From Alphaproteobacteria bacterium UBA6324 (GTDB taxonomy: Bacteria > Pseudomonadota > Alphaproteobacteria > CAAGCB01 > CAG-977): 64,000 nt of DNA. The notes under the pieces were generated by a model, which was given only the letters and a program-made list of their open reading frames with translations, was not told where the DNA came from and did not search any database. Each line of letters begins with the position of its first letter. Within the stretch, counting starts at the first letter, position 1. The stretch spans positions 26,371 to 90,370 of the forward strand of contig DJSW01000007.1 of NCBI GenBank assembly GCA_002439085.1. Direction: 5' to 3'. Shown piece by piece: positions 5,523 through 14,953 of the stretch. The position numbers and the translations under genes were made by a program.

Positions 5523-6947
5523 ATGGAAATACTGACCGCCGGACAAATGCGCGACGCCGACAAGGAAACCGTTGCAAATATCATGCCGGAATTGCAGCTG
5601 ATGGAAAACGCGGGGTTCGCCGCCGCGTGTCAAATCGCGCGCAGATACGGCAAGCGCCCCGTCACCGTTTTGTGCGGCGCGGGCAACAACGGCGGGGACG
5701 GGTTCGTCGTCGCCCGATTGTTGCGGCAGCGCGGCTGGCCCGTCGAAGTCGTTTTCACCGGCGACGAACAAAAAATGACACCCGCCGCGGCCGCAAACGC
5801 CAAAAAATTCAAAGGCGCCGTCCGCCCGTTATCGCTTCAGAGCCTGAAAAGGGCGGAAAAGGACGGCCGTCTGTTCGTGGACGCCGTTTTCGGCACAGGA
5901 CTTTGCCGCCCCGTCACGGGCGATATCGCCGATTTTTTCAACGCGCTGAACGAAACGGCCGCGCCGTGCGTCGCGCTGGACATCCCCGGCGGCGTTTGCG
6001 CCGACACGGGCGAAGTGCTGGGAACCGCCCCGTTCTGCGATATGACGGTCACTTTTTGCCGGCCGAAAATCGGGCATTTTCTCTACCCCGCCAAGGAACG
6101 CGTCGGCGATTTGACCGTCTGCCCGATCGGCATCCCCGACGAAATCGTCGCGCATCAAAATCCGTCCGTTTACGAAAACGCGCCCGATTTGTTTTCCGTA
6201 CCGGCGGCGACGCCCTATGACAACAAATATTCCCGCGGCGCGGTGTTGGTGCGCGCGGGCGAAATGAGCGGAGCCGCCCGATTGGCCGCGGCGGCGGCGC
6301 GGCGCGCGGGCGCGGGATGGGTCGGCGTGTCCTGCGACACTCGATTGCAAAACCTGTTCGCCCTTGACGCGGAAACGGTCGTCCAGCCCGCCGACACCGC
6401 CGAAGCGTTCAAAACGCAGTTGAGCGGCCGCAAAATCTCCGCCACCGTCATCGGTATGGGAATGACGGAAACGCCCCGTGTCAAAGAATTTATGGACATC
6501 CTTTCCGCATCCGGAAAACCGTTCGTCGCCGACGCGGGCGCCCTGCCCTTTATCAAAACCGTCAAAGATCCGTCCCGCGCGATCGTCACGCCGCACGCGG
6601 GCGAATTTTGCCGCCTTTTCCCCGACATAGCCGGAAAAAACAAGTTGGATCAGGCGCGGGCAGCCGCCAAAGCTTTAAATTGCGTCGTCGTGTTAAAGGG
6701 TGCGGACACCGTCATCGCCGCCCCCGACGGCCGCGCGGCGATTAACGCGACAACGGCGTTCAATCTGGCGACGGCGGGCAGCGGCGACGTTTTGGGCGGC
6801 ATCATCGGCGCGATGCTGGCGAAATCTCTCCCCCCGTTTGAATCCGCCTGCGCCGGCGTGTGGCTGCATTCCCGCGCCGCCGAATCCGCCGGACGAGAAA
6901 ACCTGATCGCTTCGGACATTGTTGACGCGCTGGGCGAAATCCGATGA
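5523..6947 (+). CDS. nnr: bifunctional NAD(P)H-hydrate repair enzyme Nnr (epimerase/dehydratase, YjeF family)
   Basis: The N-terminal YjeF-N motif is present (VLCGAGNNGGDGFVVARLL). The C-terminal carbohydrate-kinase-like domain is present (..VLKGADTVIAAPDG..GSGDVLGG..). Confidence 0.85.
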   Translation: MEILTAGQMRDADKETVANIMPELQLMENAGFAAACQIARRYGKRPVTVLCGAGNNGGDGFVVARLLRQRGWPVEVVFTGDEQKMTPAAAANAKKFKGAVRPLSLQSLKRAEKDGRLFVDAVFGTGLCRPVTGDIADFFNALNETAAPCVALDIPGGVCADTGEVLGTAPFCDMTVTFCRPKIGHFLYPAKERVGDLTVCPIGIPDEIVAHQNPSVYENAPDLFSVPAATPYDNKYSRGAVLVRAGEMSGAARLAAAAARRAGAGWVGVSCDTRLQNLFALDAETVVQPADTAEAFKTQLSGRKISATVIGMGMTETPRVKEFMDILSASGKPFVADAGALPFIKTVKDPSRAIVTPHAGEFCRLFPDIAGKNKLDQARAAAKALNCVVVLKGADTVIAAPDGRAAINATTAFNLATAGSGDVLGGIIGAMLAKSLPPFESACAGVWLHSRAAESAGRENLIASDIVDALGEIR

Positions 6948-7423
6948 AGTTTTTGTTTTACCTGCTGCGGCACAAATTTTGGGTGTTTTGGTTTTGCGCG
7001 CACCACGGAATGATTTGGCGCGGGCTGAAGCATGATTGCGACAAACTGCGCCCGTCGCTGTTTTTCACATACGCCCGCAACTTCGCGCTGGCCGAAAAAC
7101 TGCGCGACAAAACGGGGCATTACAGTCCGGCCGCCGTGCCGGACGAATGCCGGATCGCCCTGCTGAACCATTTTCACCGCGCGCGCCACCATTGGCAACA
7201 TTGGATTTTACCGTGCGACACGAAAATCGAACCGCTGGACATGGGTGAAAACGACGTGCGGGAAATGCTGTGCGATTGGGCGGGCGCGGGACGGACGCAG
7301 CGCGGCAAAAACTGGCGGCGCGCCGACGTGCGCGATTTTTTCATAAAAAACAGGGACAAAATGGTTTTGTCCCCGCGCACGATCGAATTGATTGAAAAAA
7401 ATCTGGATTCGATGGGATTTTAA
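6944..7423 (+). CDS. hypothetical protein (His-rich HHG...H.D.DK motif), family not recognised
   Basis: The ATG at 6944 overlaps the nnr stop. The ORF is 159 aa. Its last 80 nt or so are duplicated at 11061-11143. Confidence 0.55.
   Translation: MKFLFYLLRHKFWVFWFCAHHGMIWRGLKHDCDKLRPSLFFTYARNFALAEKLRDKTGHYSPAAVPDECRIALLNHFHRARHHWQHWILPCDTKIEPLDMGENDVREMLCDWAGAGRTQRGKNWRRADVRDFFIKNRDKMVLSPRTIELIEKNLDSMGF
7343..7423. repeat. direct repeat copy 1 (3' end of the 159-aa gene; contains hairpin GGACAAAATGGTTTTGTCC)
   Basis: About 85% identical to 11061-11143 over roughly 81 nt. Begins ATAAAAAACAGGGACAAAATGGTTTTGTCCCCGCGCAC. Confidence 0.7.
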
Positions 7424-7499
7424 CAAGTCCTGCGGTCACACCCGCACAAAAGGCGGGGACACGTTCCCCGCCTTTATATTGTGATGCAATATCCGGAAA

Positions 7500-10400
7500 T
7501 CAGAAATTCACTTTCAGATTCACCATGCCCGTGTGATCGGCGTAATCATTTTTAAAACGCCCTTCGTATTTCAGCGACAATTCGCCGCCGCGTCCGAACG
7601 CGATCGCCAAACCCGCGCCGGCTTCAACGCCGAATCTATCCAAAGGATCGCCTTTGACCCGATATTCGGTCAGATCCGGCAAAACAACCGTCCTGTCATC
7701 GTTATCCTGATTGAAATCATACGTCGCCGCCACTTTCAATTCCGGCGTCACCCCGATGGACGGCGCGAAATTCAAATAGTAGTCGTTGGATAGCTTCGCC
7801 CCGACAACCCCCGTCCAAGTGTTTTGAATCGATTTTTTCAACCTCGCCCCAAGCGCGTCGGTATATGCGTTTTGGCGAATGTTCATGAAACGCAAAGCGG
7901 CTTCCGGACTGAATATGCCGAAATCATACCCGACCGCCATTTGCGCGGAAACGGCGTCGGCCGTATAGTTGCTTTCCATTTCAGTCAAACGCGTTTTTTC
8001 GTCATATCTGGAATGGCCGTAACCGGCGACGGCGTTCACATAGGCTTTGTACGGTTTGTATTCGCCATAAACAAAGTAGGTGTGCGTATCAACGTCGGTC
8101 GCAGCGCGCTGCGTCCCGATATCCGTCGAAGCAAAAGCGTACCCCGCGCCGAATTTAAAGTCGTCCGAAACATTTCCTTCCAACCCCGCCGCAAAGCCGC
8201 CGGTATGGGCGTTGAAACCGTCATTTTTATCAAGCTTTGCATAGTTCATCATGCCTTGCGCCCAAACGGAAACGCGGCCGGATTCAAAATCGCCGCCCGA
8301 ACGCCCGCGGTAACGGCGGGAATAATTGCCGTATCCCGTTCTGCCGCGATAACCGCCGCCCCAATGTTCCGAAAAACCGCCGAAACGGGTTTGAACGACG
8401 TTGATGACGGATTTTGCGGCGTTGGAAGCGGCCGTATTCGCGGATTGCGTCACGTCGGGCGCGACTTCGCGCAAAATCTGCTTTGCCGTTTTTTCATCCG
8501 CCTCGTCCAGCAACGTATTGACGCGATCGACCGTCTTCCGGACTTTTTTATCAAATTTGGAAAAAAGATCGTCTTCGATATCCAGAACCTTCGACGCGTC
8601 GCGTTGCGTTTGCGACACTTTTTCTCCGGCCTTTTCCAAATCTTCAATGACGGCTTCGGACGCCGTCGCCAACCGCAGAATATATAAATTGCCGCCGTCC
8701 CAATCTTGCAAACGTTTGATGTTTTTCGCGTCCTGCGGATCAAAGTACGTTTTGGAAACGGCATAGCGCGATGTCGAATAATCCCCCAAATTAAATCCCG
8801 TTCCGTCCGTAATTTTATACAGCGTCGTCACGTCGCGCGAAACGCCCGACATCCCCAGCTTCAACGTCACATTGCTTGCGGACGTATCAACCTTAATGAT
8901 GGCGGACGTTTTCGCCGCGTCCGTTAAAATGGCCGAAATCGTCCCGCCCGTAATGGTATCGGCTTTCAACGTTCCCGCCCCGATGTCCAAAGTTTTTCCG
9001 GCGGCGATGGTAATGTCCTTGATCACGGCGCCATCGGCGAATTTCAACGTGGCAAGCGAATAGTTATCCGCAAAATTCAACGACGCCGTTCCGGATATCG
9101 TTCCCCGGATGCGGGCGTTTTCATGCTGAAAATTGATTTGCGTTTCTGAAAAATCCGCCTGCGCGTTCAACACGCCGCCCAAATTCAACCGTCCGCCGTT
9201 TTCAAAATGCAGAACGTTCCCGTCGTTCGACCCAACGTTCAAAACCGCGTTTTTGGCAATGTTCAGCGTCGAATTGTCCAATGAAACCGTCCCGCTTCTG
9301 GCGGAAACTTCGTTGTTGCCGTTAACGGCGACCGTCGAATTGGAAACGGTCAGATTTCCCGATTTGAAACTGTCGTTGATCAATCCCGACGTTCCGTTCA
9401 TCGTGACAACGGAATTTTGAACCGTCACGTTTCCGCCCCAATTATCCAAAACGACGTTCATATTGTTGTACGCTTCGTACAATTTTTGTTCCAGATATTT
9501 CCAATCCGGCGTTTTCCCGTTGTCCCAAGCATCTGTGACGTGCTTCATCAAATTCGTAGCCGTACCCGTTTCCGAATCCGGTAAAAGGAAACCAAAAGAA
9601 TAAAACGGATCGTCAACGCTGTTCGGCAAATCGTCGCGTTTTTTCGTCGTCGCGTCCACTTTTTTCAATTCGGACAGAATGATGCCGACCGAATCCGCGA
9701 TTTCGGCTTGCGTCAATTTGTTCCGGACGGCGGAAACATCCTTCCAACAATCTTCAAAGCGGTCAAGCGGGTCGGCATAATCTTTGACCTTGCCGTAATC
9801 GGCGGCGGAAATGCTTTCGGCGAAAAGCCCGATCCCCGCCAACGAATTTCCGTTCAGAACCAAATCGGCGTTATCAAAGTTCGTGCTTGCATCAATCGCC
9901 GATTCTGCATTTGAAAACATAAACGCATTATATTCTTCGTACAAAATTTTATCGCCGAACAAATGTTTGTTATGCAGATGTGTGAAATTTCCCGCAAACG
10001 TGTCTTTGTTCAACGTCGCCTTGCCGGACAACGTTCCGACACTTAAATTTGTTTTTGCCAGAGAAATCCCCCTGTCGCCGGAAATGTTCATTTGCCCCGC
10101 GTGCAAATCGTGGAAATTCTTGCCGGCTTTCAAATTTAAAACCGTTTTATTCGAATCAATGTTCAAATCGTTTGCGGTGCCGCTCCACCACCAATCGACG
10201 CCGTCAAAATTTCCGCCGGACAAATTTAAATTGCTTGTACCGCCCAAAGTGAACGCTCCGCGAAACGTGCCGCCGGTGATTGTCAGATCGCCGACGTTCT
10301 TCTTCTCCTCCGTTGTTGGACTATTGCTTGTAAAAGTCATATCCGTAAAATTCCCGCCGGTGATTTTTAATGAATTGTTGGAATAGATCATGCCATTGTC

Positions 10401-10745
10401 GAATGTGCCGTCGGTAATCGTCACATCTTTGCCGGACAAACTCAAATAAGGTGTTGGCGTTGGATAGTCATAGAATGTTCCGCGGAACGTGCCGCCGGTG
10501 ATTGTCAATGAATTTTCGGCGGATATCATAACGTTGTCGAATGTTCCGCCGGAAACGGTGATGTCGGAGATCGGTTCTTCCGTATCGGCGGGGATTTTTG
10601 TGTCCTTGTAAGTGCCGGAGGATATGTCCAAAGCCCGCGCCGGTGAAACGACCGCAAAAGCCGCCAGATTGATCAAAGCGCATTTAATCAGCACCGCACG
10701 ATACCGGCGCGCCAAAGTTTTCAAAGTCGTTTCGGATTGCTTCAT
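7500..10745 (-). CDS. autotransporter adhesin (beta-helical passenger plus C-terminal autotransporter beta-barrel)
   Basis: Signal peptide MKQSETTLKTLARRYRAVLIKCALINLAAFAVVSPARA. Passenger has repeated TITGGTF/LSGGNF motifs. The C-terminal roughly 280 aa resemble an autotransporter barrel, with the final residue Phe (..GMVNLKVNF). GC is lower than the flanking sequence. Confidence 0.85.
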   Translation of the reverse strand: MKQSETTLKTLARRYRAVLIKCALINLAAFAVVSPARALDISSGTYKDTKIPADTEEPISDITVSGGTFDNVMISAENSLTITGGTFRGTFYDYPTPTPYLSLSGKDVTITDGTFDNGMIYSNNSLKITGGNFTDMTFTSNSPTTEEKKNVGDLTITGGTFRGAFTLGGTSNLNLSGGNFDGVDWWWSGTANDLNIDSNKTVLNLKAGKNFHDLHAGQMNISGDRGISLAKTNLSVGTLSGKATLNKDTFAGNFTHLHNKHLFGDKILYEEYNAFMFSNAESAIDASTNFDNADLVLNGNSLAGIGLFAESISAADYGKVKDYADPLDRFEDCWKDVSAVRNKLTQAEIADSVGIILSELKKVDATTKKRDDLPNSVDDPFYSFGFLLPDSETGTATNLMKHVTDAWDNGKTPDWKYLEQKLYEAYNNMNVVLDNWGGNVTVQNSVVTMNGTSGLINDSFKSGNLTVSNSTVAVNGNNEVSARSGTVSLDNSTLNIAKNAVLNVGSNDGNVLHFENGGRLNLGGVLNAQADFSETQINFQHENARIRGTISGTASLNFADNYSLATLKFADGAVIKDITIAAGKTLDIGAGTLKADTITGGTISAILTDAAKTSAIIKVDTSASNVTLKLGMSGVSRDVTTLYKITDGTGFNLGDYSTSRYAVSKTYFDPQDAKNIKRLQDWDGGNLYILRLATASEAVIEDLEKAGEKVSQTQRDASKVLDIEDDLFSKFDKKVRKTVDRVNTLLDEADEKTAKQILREVAPDVTQSANTAASNAAKSVINVVQTRFGGFSEHWGGGYRGRTGYGNYSRRYRGRSGGDFESGRVSVWAQGMMNYAKLDKNDGFNAHTGGFAAGLEGNVSDDFKFGAGYAFASTDIGTQRAATDVDTHTYFVYGEYKPYKAYVNAVAGYGHSRYDEKTRLTEMESNYTADAVSAQMAVGYDFGIFSPEAALRFMNIRQNAYTDALGARLKKSIQNTWTGVVGAKLSNDYYLNFAPSIGVTPELKVAATYDFNQDNDDRTVVLPDLTEYRVKGDPLDRFGVEAGAGLAIAFGRGGELSLKYEGRFKNDYADHTGMVNLKVNF

Positions 10746-10775
10746 TTTCCCATTCCCTTGCACTGTTAAACAAAA

Positions 10776-10960
10776 ACCGCCTTGGTCAGGCGGTCGGGGA
10801 GTAGAAAAACCATATAGTATCAAATGATCCTTTCGGCCTTTAAACGCCCTCCGTTTTTTCAAGGATAGTGACGGAGCGCGTTCTGAACATACGCCAAAAG
10901 CTCCCCGACCTCCGGTTAAGAGTTCGGGGATATTTTCCGGTTTCACCGTTGGCAAACCGG
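10776..10960 (-). promoter_or_regulatory. structured leader element copy A (P1 helix GGUCGGGGAG/CUCCCCGACC, then terminator hairpin CCGCCUGACCAAGGCGG-UUUUU) about 30 nt upstream of the autotransporter start
   Basis: Homologous to 36690-36870. Contains an inverted repeat, an internal compensatory hairpin, and conserved blocks CGUAUGUUCAGAA and UUUAAAGG. Confidence 0.45.
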
Positions 10961-11060
10961 TTTACGACGCATATCGGCGCCGGATACTATAAGAGGTTTT
11001 CTAGGCCTCCGTGCCCGCTAAGACACAACTGAAAGGATACACAATGACGGGCATATGTTC

Positions 11061-11143
11061 AATAAAAAAAGCGGAGACAAAACGGTTTTGTCCCCGCGCA
11101 CAATCGAATTGATTGAAAAAATCCGGATTCGATCAGGTTTTAA
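11061..11143. repeat. direct repeat copy 2 (degenerate duplicate of the 3' end of the gene at 6944-7423)
   Basis: AATAAAAAAAGCGGAGACAAAACGGTTTTGTCCCCGCGCACAATCGAATTGATTGAAAAAATCCGGATTCGATCAGGTTTTAA, aligned to 7343-7423. Confidence 0.7.
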
Positions 11144-11337
11144 AGCAACTTTTCAAACGCCGATTTTGTCAATTCCTCGACATCTTCGCCCTTGGCGATT
11201 TCGGCGATATAGGCGTTGTCGATTTTGAACGCGCCGTTTTTAAACGCATACGCCGCCCGCGCGCCGTATTCGGTGTATTCAACCTTGACGGGAACGACCC
11301 CGACCTTGAAATAACGTAAAGAAACCTTTTCCATCAC
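11140..11337 (-). CDS. small hypothetical protein (65 aa); candidate antitoxin partner of the upstream RelA/SpoT-domain gene
   Basis: The ATG overlaps the upstream gene's stop (ATGA, 4-nt overlap). No family recognised. Confidence 0.5.
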   Translation of the reverse strand: MMEKVSLRYFKVGVVPVKVEYTEYGARAAYAFKNGAFKIDNAYIAEIAKGEDVEELTKSAFEKLL

Positions 11338-11987
11338 CGTCCCCCGACTTTCGCGTTTTTGGCTTTGATCATCAGCGCGGCGGGCTGCTTGTCCTGTTCG
11401 ATTTTCAGCTTGCGCCCCTTGGTGCGTTTGTTGAACGACAGCGCCGCGTCCATATACAGCCCCTGACAGATTTTTTCGCGCATGGCGATTTCTTTCTGTT
11501 CCGCGACGGTCAACGGCCGGTCTTTGGCTTCGGCCGTGATGGAACGTATTTTTTCATAATGGCGGTGCGTTTCCTTGTCAGCCTGCGCGAAATCGCTCAG
11601 CTGAATCTGCATTTCGACGGCAAAGCCGTTCTTTTCCGGAAAAATGTATTTCAAATCGCGGTATCCGCGTTCGTTGGGCTTGTCCATACGGTCGGCTTCG
11701 CGGATCGGCGTCGTGTATTCCTTGACGGCCTTTTTGATCGCGTCCACCTGTTCCAGCGAATCGCAGATCAGGCGACAGCGCGCCAGATCCTGCAGCTGCG
11801 ACACGTCGCCGCGGTATTTCGCGTTCAATTTTTCTTCGGCGCGTTCGCGGCCTTTCAACGGCGCGGATTTGAATTCGCACCCGAATTGCTTGGCCAGTTT
11901 TTCACCGAAAGCGTCCAAAGAGGGCTTTGCCTCCGCCGCCAGCTTGTACGCTTCGTCCAAAGTTTTGGGAATCTGTCTTTCCACCAT
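11334..11987 (-). CDS. RelA/SpoT-domain nucleotidyltransferase (small alarmone synthetase-like; candidate toxSAS)
   Basis: Synthetase-domain motifs are present: KGRERAEEKL, DLARCRLICDSLEQV (cf. DIAGIRII), NERGYRDLKYIF (cf. NGYRSLH), VEMQIQLSDFAQ (cf. EIQIRT) and HRHYEKIR. The C-terminal tail is basic. Length is 217 aa. Confidence 0.72.
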   Translation of the reverse strand: MVERQIPKTLDEAYKLAAEAKPSLDAFGEKLAKQFGCEFKSAPLKGRERAEEKLNAKYRGDVSQLQDLARCRLICDSLEQVDAIKKAVKEYTTPIREADRMDKPNERGYRDLKYIFPEKNGFAVEMQIQLSDFAQADKETHRHYEKIRSITAEAKDRPLTVAEQKEIAMREKICQGLYMDAALSFNKRTKGRKLKIEQDKQPAALMIKAKNAKVGGR

Positions 11988-12065
11988 TTTTTACCGCCTT
12001 TCGTTCCGCGGAACCTTTTTCACAGCGGAATTATAGCGCGTTTTCACCCGCTTTTCAAGGGGGAG

Positions 12066-13364
12066 TCAGCGTCCGATCCCGACATAGGCGAATCCCTGTT
12101 TCACGGCTTCATCCTTGTCCAGCAGATTGCGCAAATCGACGATCCGCGGCGTTTTCATCACGGATTTCAACCGCGCCAAATCCAGCGATTTGAAATCGAC
12201 CCATTCGGTCAAAACGGCGACGACATCCGCGCCCTTTGCCGCGTCATAAGCGTCGGCGGCGTACTTGATTTTATCACCGACCAGCTTTTTGGCGTTGTCC
12301 ATCGCCTTGGGGTCGAAAGCGGTGATGTCGGCGTCATGTTTCAACAGCGCGCCGACGATTTCCATCGCGGGGCTTTCGCGGCAATCGTCCGTGCCGCCCT
12401 TGAACGCCAATCCCAACACGGCGATTTTCGGTTTTTCGATATCGGCAACCGCGTTCAAAATCCGTTCCGCCATTTGCGTTTTGCGCGCGTCGTTTTGGCG
12501 GATCGTCGTTTCGATCAGCGACATTTCAACGCCGTATCCGCGCGCCATGTACGCCATCGCGTTCGTGTCCTTGGGGAAACACGAACCGCCGTATCCCGGG
12601 CCGGGGTTCAGAAATTTTGCCCCGATGCGCGTGTCCATGCCCATGCCTTTGGCGACCTCGAACACGTCCGCGCCCGATTTTTCGCAGAAATTCGCCATTT
12701 CGTTGATATAGTTGATCTTCATCGCCAAAAAAGCGTTCGACGCGTATTTGATCGTTTCCGACGAACGGCGTTTGACGAACAGCATACGCGCGCGATCCCC
12801 GAACGGCGCGTACAATTCCCTGATGACGGCGGCGGCCTTTTCCGTGTTTGCCCCGACGATGATGCGGTCGGGGTTGAAGAAATCATGCACGGCGAAACCC
12901 TCGCGCAAAAATTCCGGCAGGGAAACCACGTCGAAATCGGCGTCGGGGTTGACTTCGCGGATCATTTGTTCAACAGCGTCGCCCGTGCCGACGGGAACGG
13001 TCGATTTATTGGCGACGACGGTATATCCCGTCAGGTATTTCGCCAATTCGCGCGCGGCGGCGTGAATGTATTTCATGTCGGCTTCCTTGGTCACGGGATG
13101 CGGCGGCGTGCCAACGGCCAGAATGACGACATCGGCGTTTTCCACGCCCTCTTTCATATCGGAAGTGAATTTCAATTTTCCGGAAGCGGCGTTTTTATGG
13201 AACAAATCCTCCAACCCGTCCTCGAACAAAGTGATTTTTCCGGCGCGCAGGGCGTCGATCTTTTCCTTGATCGCGTCAATGCAAACGACATCGTGTCCCA
13301 ATTCGGCCAAACCGACACCAGTCGGCAATCCGACATACCCCGTCCCGACAATTCCGATTTTCAT
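12066..13364 (-). CDS. ugd: UDP-glucose 6-dehydrogenase
   Basis: Begins MKIGIVGTGYVGLPTGVGLAELGHDV.. The full nucleotide-sugar dehydrogenase architecture is present. Confidence 0.9.
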   Translation of the reverse strand: MKIGIVGTGYVGLPTGVGLAELGHDVVCIDAIKEKIDALRAGKITLFEDGLEDLFHKNAASGKLKFTSDMKEGVENADVVILAVGTPPHPVTKEADMKYIHAAARELAKYLTGYTVVANKSTVPVGTGDAVEQMIREVNPDADFDVVSLPEFLREGFAVHDFFNPDRIIVGANTEKAAAVIRELYAPFGDRARMLFVKRRSSETIKYASNAFLAMKINYINEMANFCEKSGADVFEVAKGMGMDTRIGAKFLNPGPGYGGSCFPKDTNAMAYMARGYGVEMSLIETTIRQNDARKTQMAERILNAVADIEKPKIAVLGLAFKGGTDDCRESPAMEIVGALLKHDADITAFDPKAMDNAKKLVGDKIKYAADAYDAAKGADVVAVLTEWVDFKSLDLARLKSVMKTPRIVDLRNLLDKDEAVKQGFAYVGIGR

Positions 13365-13534
13365 GAAACAATCCTTATGACAAGTGATCCTTTTAGGGTT
13401 GTTATACTTTTTTCCATGCCGTCGTGCAAACCTTTTTCTGTCCGTCCGCGCGCCGCGGCGGGAAAGATAACGCTTGCGCCCGCGCGCCCGCGCTTTTAAA
13501 ATAAAGGAAATTCAAACTTTAACGGAGAATTGCC

Positions 13535-14953
13535 GTGCTGAAAAAAACATTGCTTCTGTCCGCCGCCGTCTGCTTGGCGGCGCACGCCGCGTCGGCCGAC
13601 ATCGTCGTACCGCAAAACGCCGCCAAATCGTTAAGCGTCACCGTTTACAACAACGGGCTGGGGCTGGTCAAGGAAAGCCGTCCGGTCGCCCTGCCCGCGG
13701 GCGAAAGCACCGTTTCGTTCCAAGGCGTGTCCGCCGAAATCCAGCCGGAAACGGCGTTGTTCGAGGGCGACGGGTTCAGCGTGCGCGAACAGAATTTCAA
13801 TTTCGACCTGTTGTCGCGGGAATCCTTGCTGCGCAAGTATTTGGGCAAGGACATCAAGGTCATCGAAACCCATTACGCCAGCGGGAAAAAGACGATCGAA
13901 AACGCCAAAGTCCTGTCCGTTGACGCGGGGCTTGTTTTGAAAATCGGCGACCGGATCGAAACGGATTACAACGGCCGGCTGATCTTTCCGGACATTCCGG
14001 CGGATCTGCACGAACAGCCGACGCTGAGCGTCAACGTCAACGCGAGCGCGGACGGCGAACGCGACGTGCGGCTGAGCTATCTGACAAACGGTTTGACATG
14101 GCGCGCGGATTACGTCGCCGAATTGAACGACGCGGAGGACGCGCTGAACCTGAACGGGTGGGTGACGCTGACAAACACGTCGGGGATCGCCTATAAAAAC
14201 GCGGACATCCAGTTCGTGGCCGGTTCGGTCAACCGCGTCGCCCCCGCCCCCGTCGCCCGCCCGATGATGAAATCGCGCGGTTTGATGATGGCGGCCGCCC
14301 CCGTGGCCGACAACGCGATGGCCGAAGAACGCCTGATGGATTACCATCTATATACTTTGGGGCGCAAAACGGAAATCGCGTCGAACCAAACCAAGCAGTT
14401 GGCATTGCTGTCCGCGTCGAAAATCAAAGTGAAAAAGGAATACAAGTTCACGAACCTCGTCCCGTCGTACCACGGGCGCGGCGCGGCCGGCGAAATCGGT
14501 CGCCGAAACGCCGACGTCGTTTTGCGATTCGACAACAGCAAAGCGTCCAACCTCGGCCTGCCCCTGCCCGCCGGAACGATTCGCGTTTATAAGGCGAACA
14601 GCCGCCAAAACCTGTTTTTCGTCGGCGAAGACCGCATTTCCCACACGCCTGAAAACGGTAAGATCAAGCTGAATCTGGGCAGTGCGTTTGATGTCAGCGC
14701 GGAAGGGCGCGAAACCGCCTACACCGCCCTGTCGGACAAAGCCTACGAAGCGGGATACAGCCTGACGTTCAAAAACGGATCGGACACCCCCGTCAAGGTC
14801 GCCTACCGTCAGGATTTCCCCTATGAATGGTCGATCACGGACAGTTCCGTCCCCTACACGGCGCCGACCGCGCGGCAAAGCGAATGGACGATCGCCATTC
14901 CGGCAAAGGGCAGCGCGACGCTGACCTTTACGGTGCGCGTCAAACGTCCGTAA
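13535..14953 (+). CDS. secreted DUF4139/DUF4140-like protein
   Basis: GTG start with GGAG RBS. Signal peptide MLKKTLLLSAAVCLAAHA. Sequence pattern (TVYNNGLGLVKESR..) is typical of DUF4139-family proteins. Confidence 0.65.
   Translation: MLKKTLLLSAAVCLAAHAASADIVVPQNAAKSLSVTVYNNGLGLVKESRPVALPAGESTVSFQGVSAEIQPETALFEGDGFSVREQNFNFDLLSRESLLRKYLGKDIKVIETHYASGKKTIENAKVLSVDAGLVLKIGDRIETDYNGRLIFPDIPADLHEQPTLSVNVNASADGERDVRLSYLTNGLTWRADYVAELNDAEDALNLNGWVTLTNTSGIAYKNADIQFVAGSVNRVAPAPVARPMMKSRGLMMAAAPVADNAMAEERLMDYHLYTLGRKTEIASNQTKQLALLSASKIKVKKEYKFTNLVPSYHGRGAAGEIGRRNADVVLRFDNSKASNLGLPLPAGTIRVYKANSRQNLFFVGEDRISHTPENGKIKLNLGSAFDVSAEGRETAYTALSDKAYEAGYSLTFKNGSDTPVKVAYRQDFPYEWSITDSSVPYTAPTARQSEWTIAIPAKGSATLTFTVRVKRP

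Follow-up and report, generated by a model that had tools for sequence, protein, structure and literature searches.

The question raised by this locus is whether a small RelA/SpoT-type synthetase and the short open reading frame (ORF) that overlaps its stop codon form a toxin/antitoxin module and, if so, to which type of toxic small alarmone synthetase (toxSAS) the enzyme belongs. The two genes lie on the minus strand of a 64-kb stretch of DNA (64,000 nucleotides, hereafter the window) of Alphaproteobacteria bacterium UBA6324, and a preliminary description, made from the sequence of the window, had proposed them as a candidate toxSAS toxin/antitoxin module with a tRNA-targeting enzyme. Based on domain identity, active site, similarity to Tas1, conservation, selection, linkage, coupling geometry, polymorphism and promoter- and terminator-like sites, we conclude that the two genes probably act as an independent bicistronic cassette of a toxin and its neutraliser, of the toxSAS type, in which a Tas1/Apk1-like enzyme is combined with a neutralising partner that represents a new family. 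The parts of the module are located as follows (positions in the window):

11334..11987, minus strand: small synthetase gene, a 217-aa stand-alone ORF with a RelA/SpoT synthetase domain, Tas1/Apk1-like, stop codon included
11140..11337, minus strand: small partner ORF, of 64 aa if the ATG at 11334 is the start and of 65 aa if it is the GTG at 11337
11580..11843, minus strand: catalytic core of the synthetase, aa 49-136, equal to the span of the Pfam match
11337..11429, minus strand: basic C-terminal tail of the synthetase, aa 187-217, containing the invariant G191-R192-K193-L194
11340..11345, minus strand: Shine-Dalgarno-like GGGGGA for the small ORF, within the last synthetase codons, as read from the sequence

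Domain content and active site of the synthetase

The 217-aa protein matched the Pfam family RelA_SpoT (PF04607) with 36.6 bits, which is above the curated cut-off of 27 (E 5.9e-9, aa 49-136), and no second Pfam domain, i.e. no HD hydrolase, TGS or ACT domain, exceeded its cut-off. Since the sole other match listed, Enc34_ssDNA-bd, falls below its cut-off (13.5 vs 26 bits), we assign the protein on its sequence to the synthetase-only RelA/SpoT homologues (RSHs), and thereby to the class of small alarmone synthetases (SASs). The NCBIfam model for YjbM gave 13.9 bits against a cut-off of 320, and PADLOC returned a match to the candidate system PDC-S33 only, at the domain level.

In an alignment of 13 homologues, the positions K45/R47, D67-L-A-R70-C-R72, G108-Y109-R110-D111 and E125-x-Q127 are invariant, and the synthetase motifs align with DIAGIR, GYRSLH and VEIQIRT of RelP and RelQ; the K45-G-R47 motif is located just upstream of the Pfam-matched core. 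By transfer from Rel(Seq), RelP and RelQ, we take Y109 to be the tyrosine that stacks on the acceptor base, K45-G-R47 (with R72) to provide the arginine and lysine residues at the donor phosphates, D67 to bind magnesium and E125 to be catalytic. An acceptor-stacking tyrosine is common to all RSH synthetases. Judged by these motifs, the synthetase active site is intact. The preliminary description, which had read synthetase motifs without hydrolase, TGS or ACT regions and had suggested the PF04607 search, was therefore correct on this point.

It was also right about a Lys/Arg-rich tail: the last 31 residues contain 11 K/R and have a pI of 11.2. The tail motif GRKL (191-194) is invariant in the alignment of the 13 homologues, and residues 199-217 are predicted to be disordered, with a predicted local distance difference test score (pLDDT) below 50 in an AlphaFold2 (AF2) model that reaches 88.8 for the synthetase. 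The consensus of the wider family described below lacks the basic tail, which is specific to the stand-alone clade. At the other end of the protein we found no N-terminal delivery or trafficking domain and no signal peptide; the N-terminal stretch, including the first helix of the model (residues 10-35), aligns with the toxin domain of Tas1, from residue 4 on.

The small partner protein and its coupling to the synthetase gene

On the minus strand of the window, the junction of the two genes reads GGGGGACGGTGATGG, so that a start of the small ORF at the GTG overlaps the TGA stop by 4 nt (GTGA, 65 aa); a start at the ATG overlaps it by 1 nt (TGATG, 64 aa). The ATG at 11334 is more probably the start, as the gene is called from ATG in all close relatives. 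The GGGGGA run sits 5 nt upstream of this ATG, and G-rich counterparts occur at the same spot in most of the relatives' junctions listed. With respect to the partner ORF with a 4-nt overlap of the ATGA kind described before, the overlap stands and the ATGA does not, since the window reads GTGA or TGATG; a true ATGA junction is present in the relatives L027 and L038.

The small ORF is located directly downstream of the synthetase gene in all of the 52 loci (51 identified by tblastn, the 52nd by hhalign with a probability of 95.6% and an E of 1.1e-8), and no locus among the 52 carries the small ORF alone. The junctions vary between TGATG/TAATG, ATGGCTGA, ATGA and GTGA, with the start overlapping the stop in every case. 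Such varied but always overlapping junctions suggest the pattern that is expected under selection for translational coupling.

The homologues of the small ORF fall into 37 clusters of 59-74 aa, none of which is fused to another protein or contains a Pfam domain. Their identity ranges from 95% down to 34-40%, with a 66-aa member in L035 at 23%, which was confirmed by hhalign. The pairwise ratio of non-synonymous to synonymous substitution rates (dN/dS) was 0.136 for the small ORF, compared with 0.157 for the synthetase gene, 0.116 for ugd and 0.181 for the DUF5662 gene. From homologues, purifying selection, linkage and coupling we conclude that the small ORF is a real gene, which is conserved and co-occurs with the putative toxin gene (52/52 loci), as the preliminary description had suggested should be checked.

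The AF2 model of the small protein (pLDDT 91.9) has a beta4-alpha-beta-alpha layout. We obtained no match to the protein in Pfam, NCBIfam, PADLOC or PHROGs, none in the PDB by profile or by Foldseek (E <0.5), including the chains of Tis1, pZFD and CapRel, and nothing significant with Foldseek against the viral models of BFVD. A Y20-x-x-Y23 motif is present in the window and is not conserved, with Y20F, Y23A or Y23L in relatives. Within the sensitivity of the search, the small-protein family was not found together with long fused toxins. Most likely, judged by its position and linkage, the small protein is the neutralising partner of the synthetase and belongs to a new, undescribed family.

Relationship to Tas1 and to a wider toxin-domain family

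When the single synthetase sequence was searched against the PDB, Tas1 (6OX6_A) was found with an E of 1.1e-11, compared with about 0.1 for RelQ, about 0.25 for RelP and 0.57 for RelA. The family profile gave 5.9e-18 for Tas1, 5.5e-7 for RelP, 6.6e-5 for RelQ and 1.5e-4 for RelA, and Foldseek with the AF2 model likewise placed Tas1 first (1e-9), with RelP and RelQ at about 1e-7. The identity to Tas1 is about 30% over 128 positions. Hence, by sequence as well as by fold, the protein is closer to Tas1/Apk1 than to the other characterised RSHs found. The DLAR that replaces the usual DxxG is common to Tas1 (DLARNT) and to the consensus of the wider family (DLARxSI), and it therefore marks the Tas1-like branch and is no pointer to tRNA targeting.

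Tas1 is the toxin domain of a type VI secretion system (T6SS) (p)ppApp synthetase of P. aeruginosa, whose product depletes ATP and inhibits PurF (PMC11782079; PMC7229694). Because Jimmy et al. 2020 term Tas1 itself a divergent RelV homologue (PMC7229694), a placement among RelV/RelQ-type enzymes, which the preliminary description had regarded as contradicting a toxin, is no clean refutation. The Apk1/Tas1-like family was surveyed by Ahmad et al. 2025 with 1,369 homologues, which include one member of the clade described here (A0A356FWX7) that is not discussed there and whose partner gene is not mentioned (PMC12691689). Of three characterised members, one makes both alarmones and two make (p)ppGpp only, and all three inhibited growth when placed in the cytoplasm; the turnover reported for SaEAS is about 1e5 per min (PMC12691689).

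Our exhaustive profile search of 1.84 billion cluster representatives returned 4,191 relatives. The best matches beyond the clade were one 3,127-aa protein and two stand-alone proteins of 236 and 208 aa, each of the latter two with a homologous small ORF downstream; a 2,115-aa MuF protein was also among the best profile matches. In the 149 best representatives of clusters formed at 50% identity, the domain is located at the extreme C-terminus of a longer protein in 72 cases, elsewhere in a longer protein in 43 and on its own in 34. The Pfam domains in 79 of the longer relatives include eCIS_core (8), parts of VgrG, PAAR, WXG100 and MuF, and further toxin domains were YwqJ deaminase, Ntox1, Ntox3 and ART-PolyVal. 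Since the domain is mostly fused to such delivery parts and to other toxin domains, we classify the wider Tas1-like family, on its domain architectures, as a toxin-domain family.

The 3127-aa protein (P0036), which is the closest relative outside the stand-alone clade, has an eCIS_core domain at its N-terminus and a calpain-type protease at its C-terminus, with the synthetase-like domain at residues 2615-2817, and two small overlapping ORFs (92 aa and 77 aa) come after its gene. A distant relative in L127 (479-2132) encodes a 264-aa synthetase (P0042), with a second synthetase paralogue in tandem after 5 nt; a 79-aa ORF that overlaps the synthetase start there was considered as a member of the small-protein family and rejected, as kinship was not demonstrable (hhalign probability 3.7%). 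A phage or plasmid origin was considered and rejected: no relative was found in IMG/VR, and one weak match each was obtained in a phage collection (a hypothetical Bordetella phage protein with 38% identity over 111 aa) and in a plasmid collection (on a Photobacterium megaplasmid).

The pair could also represent a secreted effector with its immunity protein, i.e. a cargo toxin without a fused delivery domain, antibacterial or host-directed, which would be exported non-covalently, for example by a contractile injection system or T6SS, or by a type IV secretion system (T4SS) via its tail, while the small protein would shield the producer and its kin. In line with this possibility, polymorphic or exported toxins (eCIS_core, MuF, PAAR, VgrG, WXG100) make up the greater part of the domain family, the closest relative outside the clade is of the extracellular contractile injection system type, and a toxin gene followed by a small overlapping ORF corresponds to the effector-immunity order of tas1-tis1. 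The conserved, basic and disordered C-terminal tail of the stand-alone clade would fit as well, since positively charged C-terminal tails act as T4SS signals in Alphaproteobacteria. However, the protein lacks a delivery domain or signal peptide at its N-terminus, where even the first helix lies inside the Tas1-aligned stretch, no secretion-system genes adjoin the pair in its six genomic contexts, and the 25 Pfam families listed of the 92 found in the 64-kb window are all housekeeping. Together with the apparent absence of the small-protein family from long fused toxins, this makes an exported effector unlikely.

Genomic contexts and presence/absence of the pair

All named carriers are uncultured gut/rumen Alphaproteobacteria or Rhodospirillales metagenome-assembled genomes. 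In GTDB, 11 species representatives carry the synthetase, and the window is about 98% identical to RUG12246. One contig labelled Limosilactobacillus gorillae (L043, CAVCSV010000006.1) carries an alphaproteobacterial synthetase locus with 67% identity to the query and is most likely mis-binned in its assembly.

In the main clade, the gene order is DUF4139, ugd, synthetase, small ORF, DUF5662 (convergent), YjeF/Nnr, NUDIX and TPR. Besides this ugd/DUF5662 site we identified five divergent contexts, which makes six in all: in L007 the pair adjoins genes for an Eco57I-like methylase and for AbiL, in L010 those for a PDC-S06/PrrC-like ATPase and serine recombinases, in L033 those for YjbQ and DUF2207, in L035 that for peptidyl-tRNA hydrolase, and in L129 those for dihydrofolate reductase and thymidylate synthase. 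Two divergent copies, those of L007 and L010, are thus in defence-gene contexts. As the divergent pairs sit in quite different places, the synthetase gene and the small ORF travel together as a unit.

Metagenomic relatives with an ugd gene 86-87% identical keep DUF4139, ugd, DUF5662 and YjeF and have a GNAT acetyltransferase gene in place of the pair, and relatives with an ugd gene 80% identical likewise keep ugd, DUF5662 and YjeF but have only a terminator between ugd and DUF5662. From this we conclude that the pair is accessory and gained or lost as a unit; because close relatives with the same backbone lack it, it is dispensable.

The slot between ugd and DUF5662 is variable, with a RimJ/RimL-like GNAT gene in L050 and L051 (5297-5805) and the terminator hairpin only in L052 and L053 (5297-5362). 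In one sub-lineage, a gene for a Fic-domain protein (356 aa) lies between DUF5662 and YjeF (L005, 7302-8372; L006, 2264-3334), which is another sign of an accumulation of accessory genes in this neighbourhood. The DUF5662 protein (159 aa; 6944-7423, plus strand, in the window and 4192-4671 in L012) is the constant convergent neighbour, and in loci without the autotransporter described below the 3' end of its gene overlaps the 3' end of the small ORF by 4 nt, with a hairpin inside the last DUF5662 codons that resembles a terminator of the synthetase operon. We considered DUF5662 as a hydrolase partner and rejected it, as it has no relative in the PDB, is convergent with the pair and stays in genomes without it; NUDIX was rejected in the same role, because in the annotated loci DUF5662 and YjeF separate it from the pair.

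Transcription signals and the neighbouring autotransporter cassette

The surroundings of the two genes contain the following further features:

12030..12058, minus strand: promoter-like site of the sigma-70 type, TTGAAA-17 nt-TATAAT, in the 78 nt that separate ugd from the synthetase gene, a consensus match only
11071..11097, minus strand: intrinsic-terminator-like hairpin with a 12-bp stem, then TTTTTTTATT, 43 nt past the small ORF
11066..11121, strand not assigned: copy of a 56-nt repeat, a remnant of the DUF5662 3' end, which marks the cassette boundary and is context outside the module

The promoter-like site matches the consensus in 11 of 12 positions and is the only such site within 10800-13600. 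Both of its hexamers are kept in most of the syntenic loci, namely in L011, L012, L001, L019 and L039 and, in altered form, in L027 and L038; they are absent from L005 and L040, in which the synthetase gene follows ugd after only about 21 nt. The hairpin with its T-run lies inside the copy of the DUF5662 3' end, and an equivalent is found in relatives irrespective of the autotransporter cassette. According to these predicted promoter-like and terminator-like sites, the pair is likely to form its own transcription unit. A perfect 12-bp palindrome, GTTCCGCGGAAC, is located at 12004-12015 on the minus strand, between the -10 box and the ribosome-binding site of the synthetase gene. On the opposite strand, a 646-aa ORF (11559-13499, plus strand) overlaps ugd and the synthetase gene; with a GC content at third codon positions of 0.57, compared with 0.70-0.72 for real genes, it looks like a spurious antisense ORF of a type common in GC-rich DNA.

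The 56-nt direct repeat occurs at 7345-7400, i.e. at the 3' end of the DUF5662 gene, and at 11066-11121, with 91% identity between the copies, and flanks an autotransporter cassette of about 3.6 kb (about 7424-11065, with an ORF at 7500-10955 on the minus strand). The window, L011, L013, L014 and probably L047 contain the cassette; L012 and L015-L018, whose synthetase genes are 99% identical, do not. The insertion junction is visible when loci with and without the cassette are aligned, and the cassette is a separate insertion polymorphism. The preliminary description had stressed the position of the pair beside the island boundary. The position itself is confirmed, since the repeat copy begins 19 nt past the small ORF; its significance is not, as loci with the pair may or may not contain the autotransporter cassette, and the location is therefore incidental.

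Weighing the remaining readings

Apart from export, the enzyme might be a regulated, non-toxic alarmone synthetase that has been domesticated for housekeeping and supplies (p)ppGpp or (p)ppApp as a second messenger in these gut Alphaproteobacteria, with the small protein as a regulatory subunit (inhibitor, activator or sensor). Its position between ugd and DUF5662 in a housekeeping region is stable from species-level to deeper divergence, both genes are under purifying selection as strong as that on their neighbours, RelP and RelQ are the next-best structural relatives, and some enzymes of the Tas1 family make (p)ppGpp only (PMC12691689). On the other hand, the pair is missing from close relatives with the same backbone and is thus dispensable, it also occurs in unrelated contexts including defence islands, its nearest relatives are toxin domains, and the characterised enzymes of the branch inhibit growth in the cytoplasm regardless of the alarmone produced (PMC12691689). 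Taken together, we regard a purely signalling role as quite improbable.

A tRNA-targeting toxSAS, to which the basic tail of pI 11.2, the conserved acceptor-stacking Y109 (a residue shared by all RSH synthetases) and two divergent copies in defence-island contexts like those of CapRel-type systems might point, is very improbable, given that CapRel was not found in the PDB by the single sequence or by the family profile at E up to 10, that no profile match was identifiable as FaRel2 (Tas1 5.9e-18), that Foldseek gave 1e-5 for CapRel (Tas1 1e-9) with FaRel2 outside the top 50, and that the partner has no pZFD match and no conserved Y20-x-x-Y23. The claim that the G-to-R exchange in DLARCR and the basic tail indicate a tRNA-targeting enzyme was consequently not upheld, as DLAR is common to Tas1. 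According to published work, tRNA-targeting toxSASs are held at the donor site by pZFD domains that have a YxxY recognition motif, and (pp)pApp-making toxSASs by Tis1 or Tis1-like domains at the acceptor site (PMC11782079).

What survives of the earlier proposal is the two-gene module of toxSAS type as such, which is in agreement with the intact active site, the conserved and coupled partner, the mobility as a unit, the AbiL and PDC-S06 neighbours and the presence/absence pattern; the tRNA-targeting sub-type does not survive. Some observations weigh against a toxin/neutraliser cassette. The small protein is unlike Tis1 and pZFD by sequence or fold (PanA and SAH, the small alarmone hydrolase, were not specifically searched), and owing to this lack of resemblance to known toxSAS neutralisers its role is read from position and linkage only. 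The product is assigned by homology and is not readable from the sequence, since members of the Tas1-like family differ in making (p)ppApp, (p)ppGpp or both (PMC12691689). The synteny of the main-clade pair is stable over 64-99% synthetase identity, and the region is a housekeeping one; a domesticated regulatory enzyme would fit this as well. Finally, the palindrome GTTCCGCGGAAC, which was considered as an autoregulatory operator, is not conserved in relatives; it is therefore probably no operator and was dropped as evidence.

Comparison with known systems

The system most similar to the pair is Tas1/Apk1-Tis1 of the P. aeruginosa T6SS (PDB 6OX6), which represents the best match by sequence and fold and shares the DLAR motif and a small gene directly downstream. 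In contrast to Tas1/Apk1, the protein described here is a stand-alone enzyme of 217 aa without PAAR or another delivery domain and without T6SS genes nearby, and it carries a basic disordered tail that is lacking from the consensus of the wider Tas1 family. Its partner of 64 aa, with a predicted beta4-alpha-beta-alpha layout, has no detectable similarity to Tis1.

In the FaRel system of Cellulomonas marina, a toxin that makes (pp)pApp is accompanied by two antitoxins, of which ATfaRel is an SAH and AT2faRel is Tis1-like/pZFD (Jimmy et al. 2020; PMC11782079). Compared by description only, the two systems have in common a stand-alone SAS with an operonic neutralising gene, an intracellular location and a predicted chemistry of nucleotide pyrophosphorylation rather than tRNA modification. 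They differ in that the module described here consists of two genes instead of three, that its partner is neither Tis1-like nor pZFD-like, that no SAH hydrolase gene is found among the annotated neighbours, and that the host is an uncultured gut/rumen alphaproteobacterium.

FaRel2/ATfaRel2, PhRel, PhRel2 and CapRel resemble the pair in combining a small RSH synthetase with an adjacent, often overlapping small gene, and some of the copies described here are located in defence islands. Unlike in these tRNA-pyrophosphorylating systems, to which there is no sequence match (CapRel, and FaRel2 as far as identifiable) and a Foldseek E of 1e-5 for CapRel, the partner is not a pZFD protein nor, judged by the absence of a Pfam match, a PanA protein, and the enzyme has no sign of tRNA binding beyond the basic tail. 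RelQ/SasB, RelP/SasA and RelV share the fold, the catalytic motifs and a similar size with the enzyme, but the profile E values of RelP and RelQ are 11-13 orders of magnitude weaker than that of Tas1. Moreover, housekeeping SASs have no obligatory overlapping partner gene, whereas the pair described here is dispensable and occurs in several contexts.

Proposed mechanism and significance

According to Jimmy et al. 2020 (PMC7229694), conserved operons of an SAS gene and a second, often overlapping gene turned out to encode toxin-antitoxin pairs, and Tas1-like enzymes are neutralised by small, directly binding proteins that are encoded adjacently (PMC11782079). By analogy, we infer toxicity of the enzyme, its direct neutralisation by the small protein, the nucleotide product and any trigger, for example phage infection. 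In the cytoplasm, the free synthetase would use ATP as the donor of a pyrophosphate group for the 3'-OH of a purine nucleotide. Judged by its homology with Tas1, it would make (p)ppApp, possibly with or instead of (p)ppGpp; in other words, the product is probably (p)ppApp and/or (p)ppGpp. ATP would thereby be drained and purine synthesis blocked, which would stop growth. The 64-aa protein would be made in a fixed ratio via the stop/start overlap, and would bind the enzyme and hold it inactive. The cassette is mobile as a unit and, in this lineage, occupies the variable slot between ugd and DUF5662.

The toxin-domain family to which the enzyme belongs is already described and catalogued, and the pair follows a known toxin/antidote theme and represents no new category of system. 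New is that a bare Tas1-like enzyme occurs in uncultured gut Alphaproteobacteria in a toxin-antitoxin format, together with a partner whose family is undescribed. Somewhat more speculatively, and with considerable reservation, the 64-aa beta-rich protein may found a new class of toxSAS neutralisers, structurally apart from Tis1, pZFD, PanA and SAH, which restrains a Tas1-like (p)ppApp synthetase intracellularly. If this were true and the partner blocked a different site or responded to a trigger, for example a phage protein, the published rule that Tis1-like domains always control (pp)pApp toxSASs at the acceptor site would be broken, and gut Alphaproteobacteria would possess an alarmone-based abortive-infection switch.

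Toxic alarmone synthetases are a recently recognised route to kill or arrest cells, in T6SS warfare, in toxin-antitoxin modules and in phage defence. If confirmed, the module would add a new antitoxin or immunity fold to this repertoire and would allow a test of the proposed tie between the substrate class of a toxSAS and its mode of neutralisation (PMC11782079), and the 64-aa partner would be a candidate inhibitor of the Tas1-like enzyme branch.

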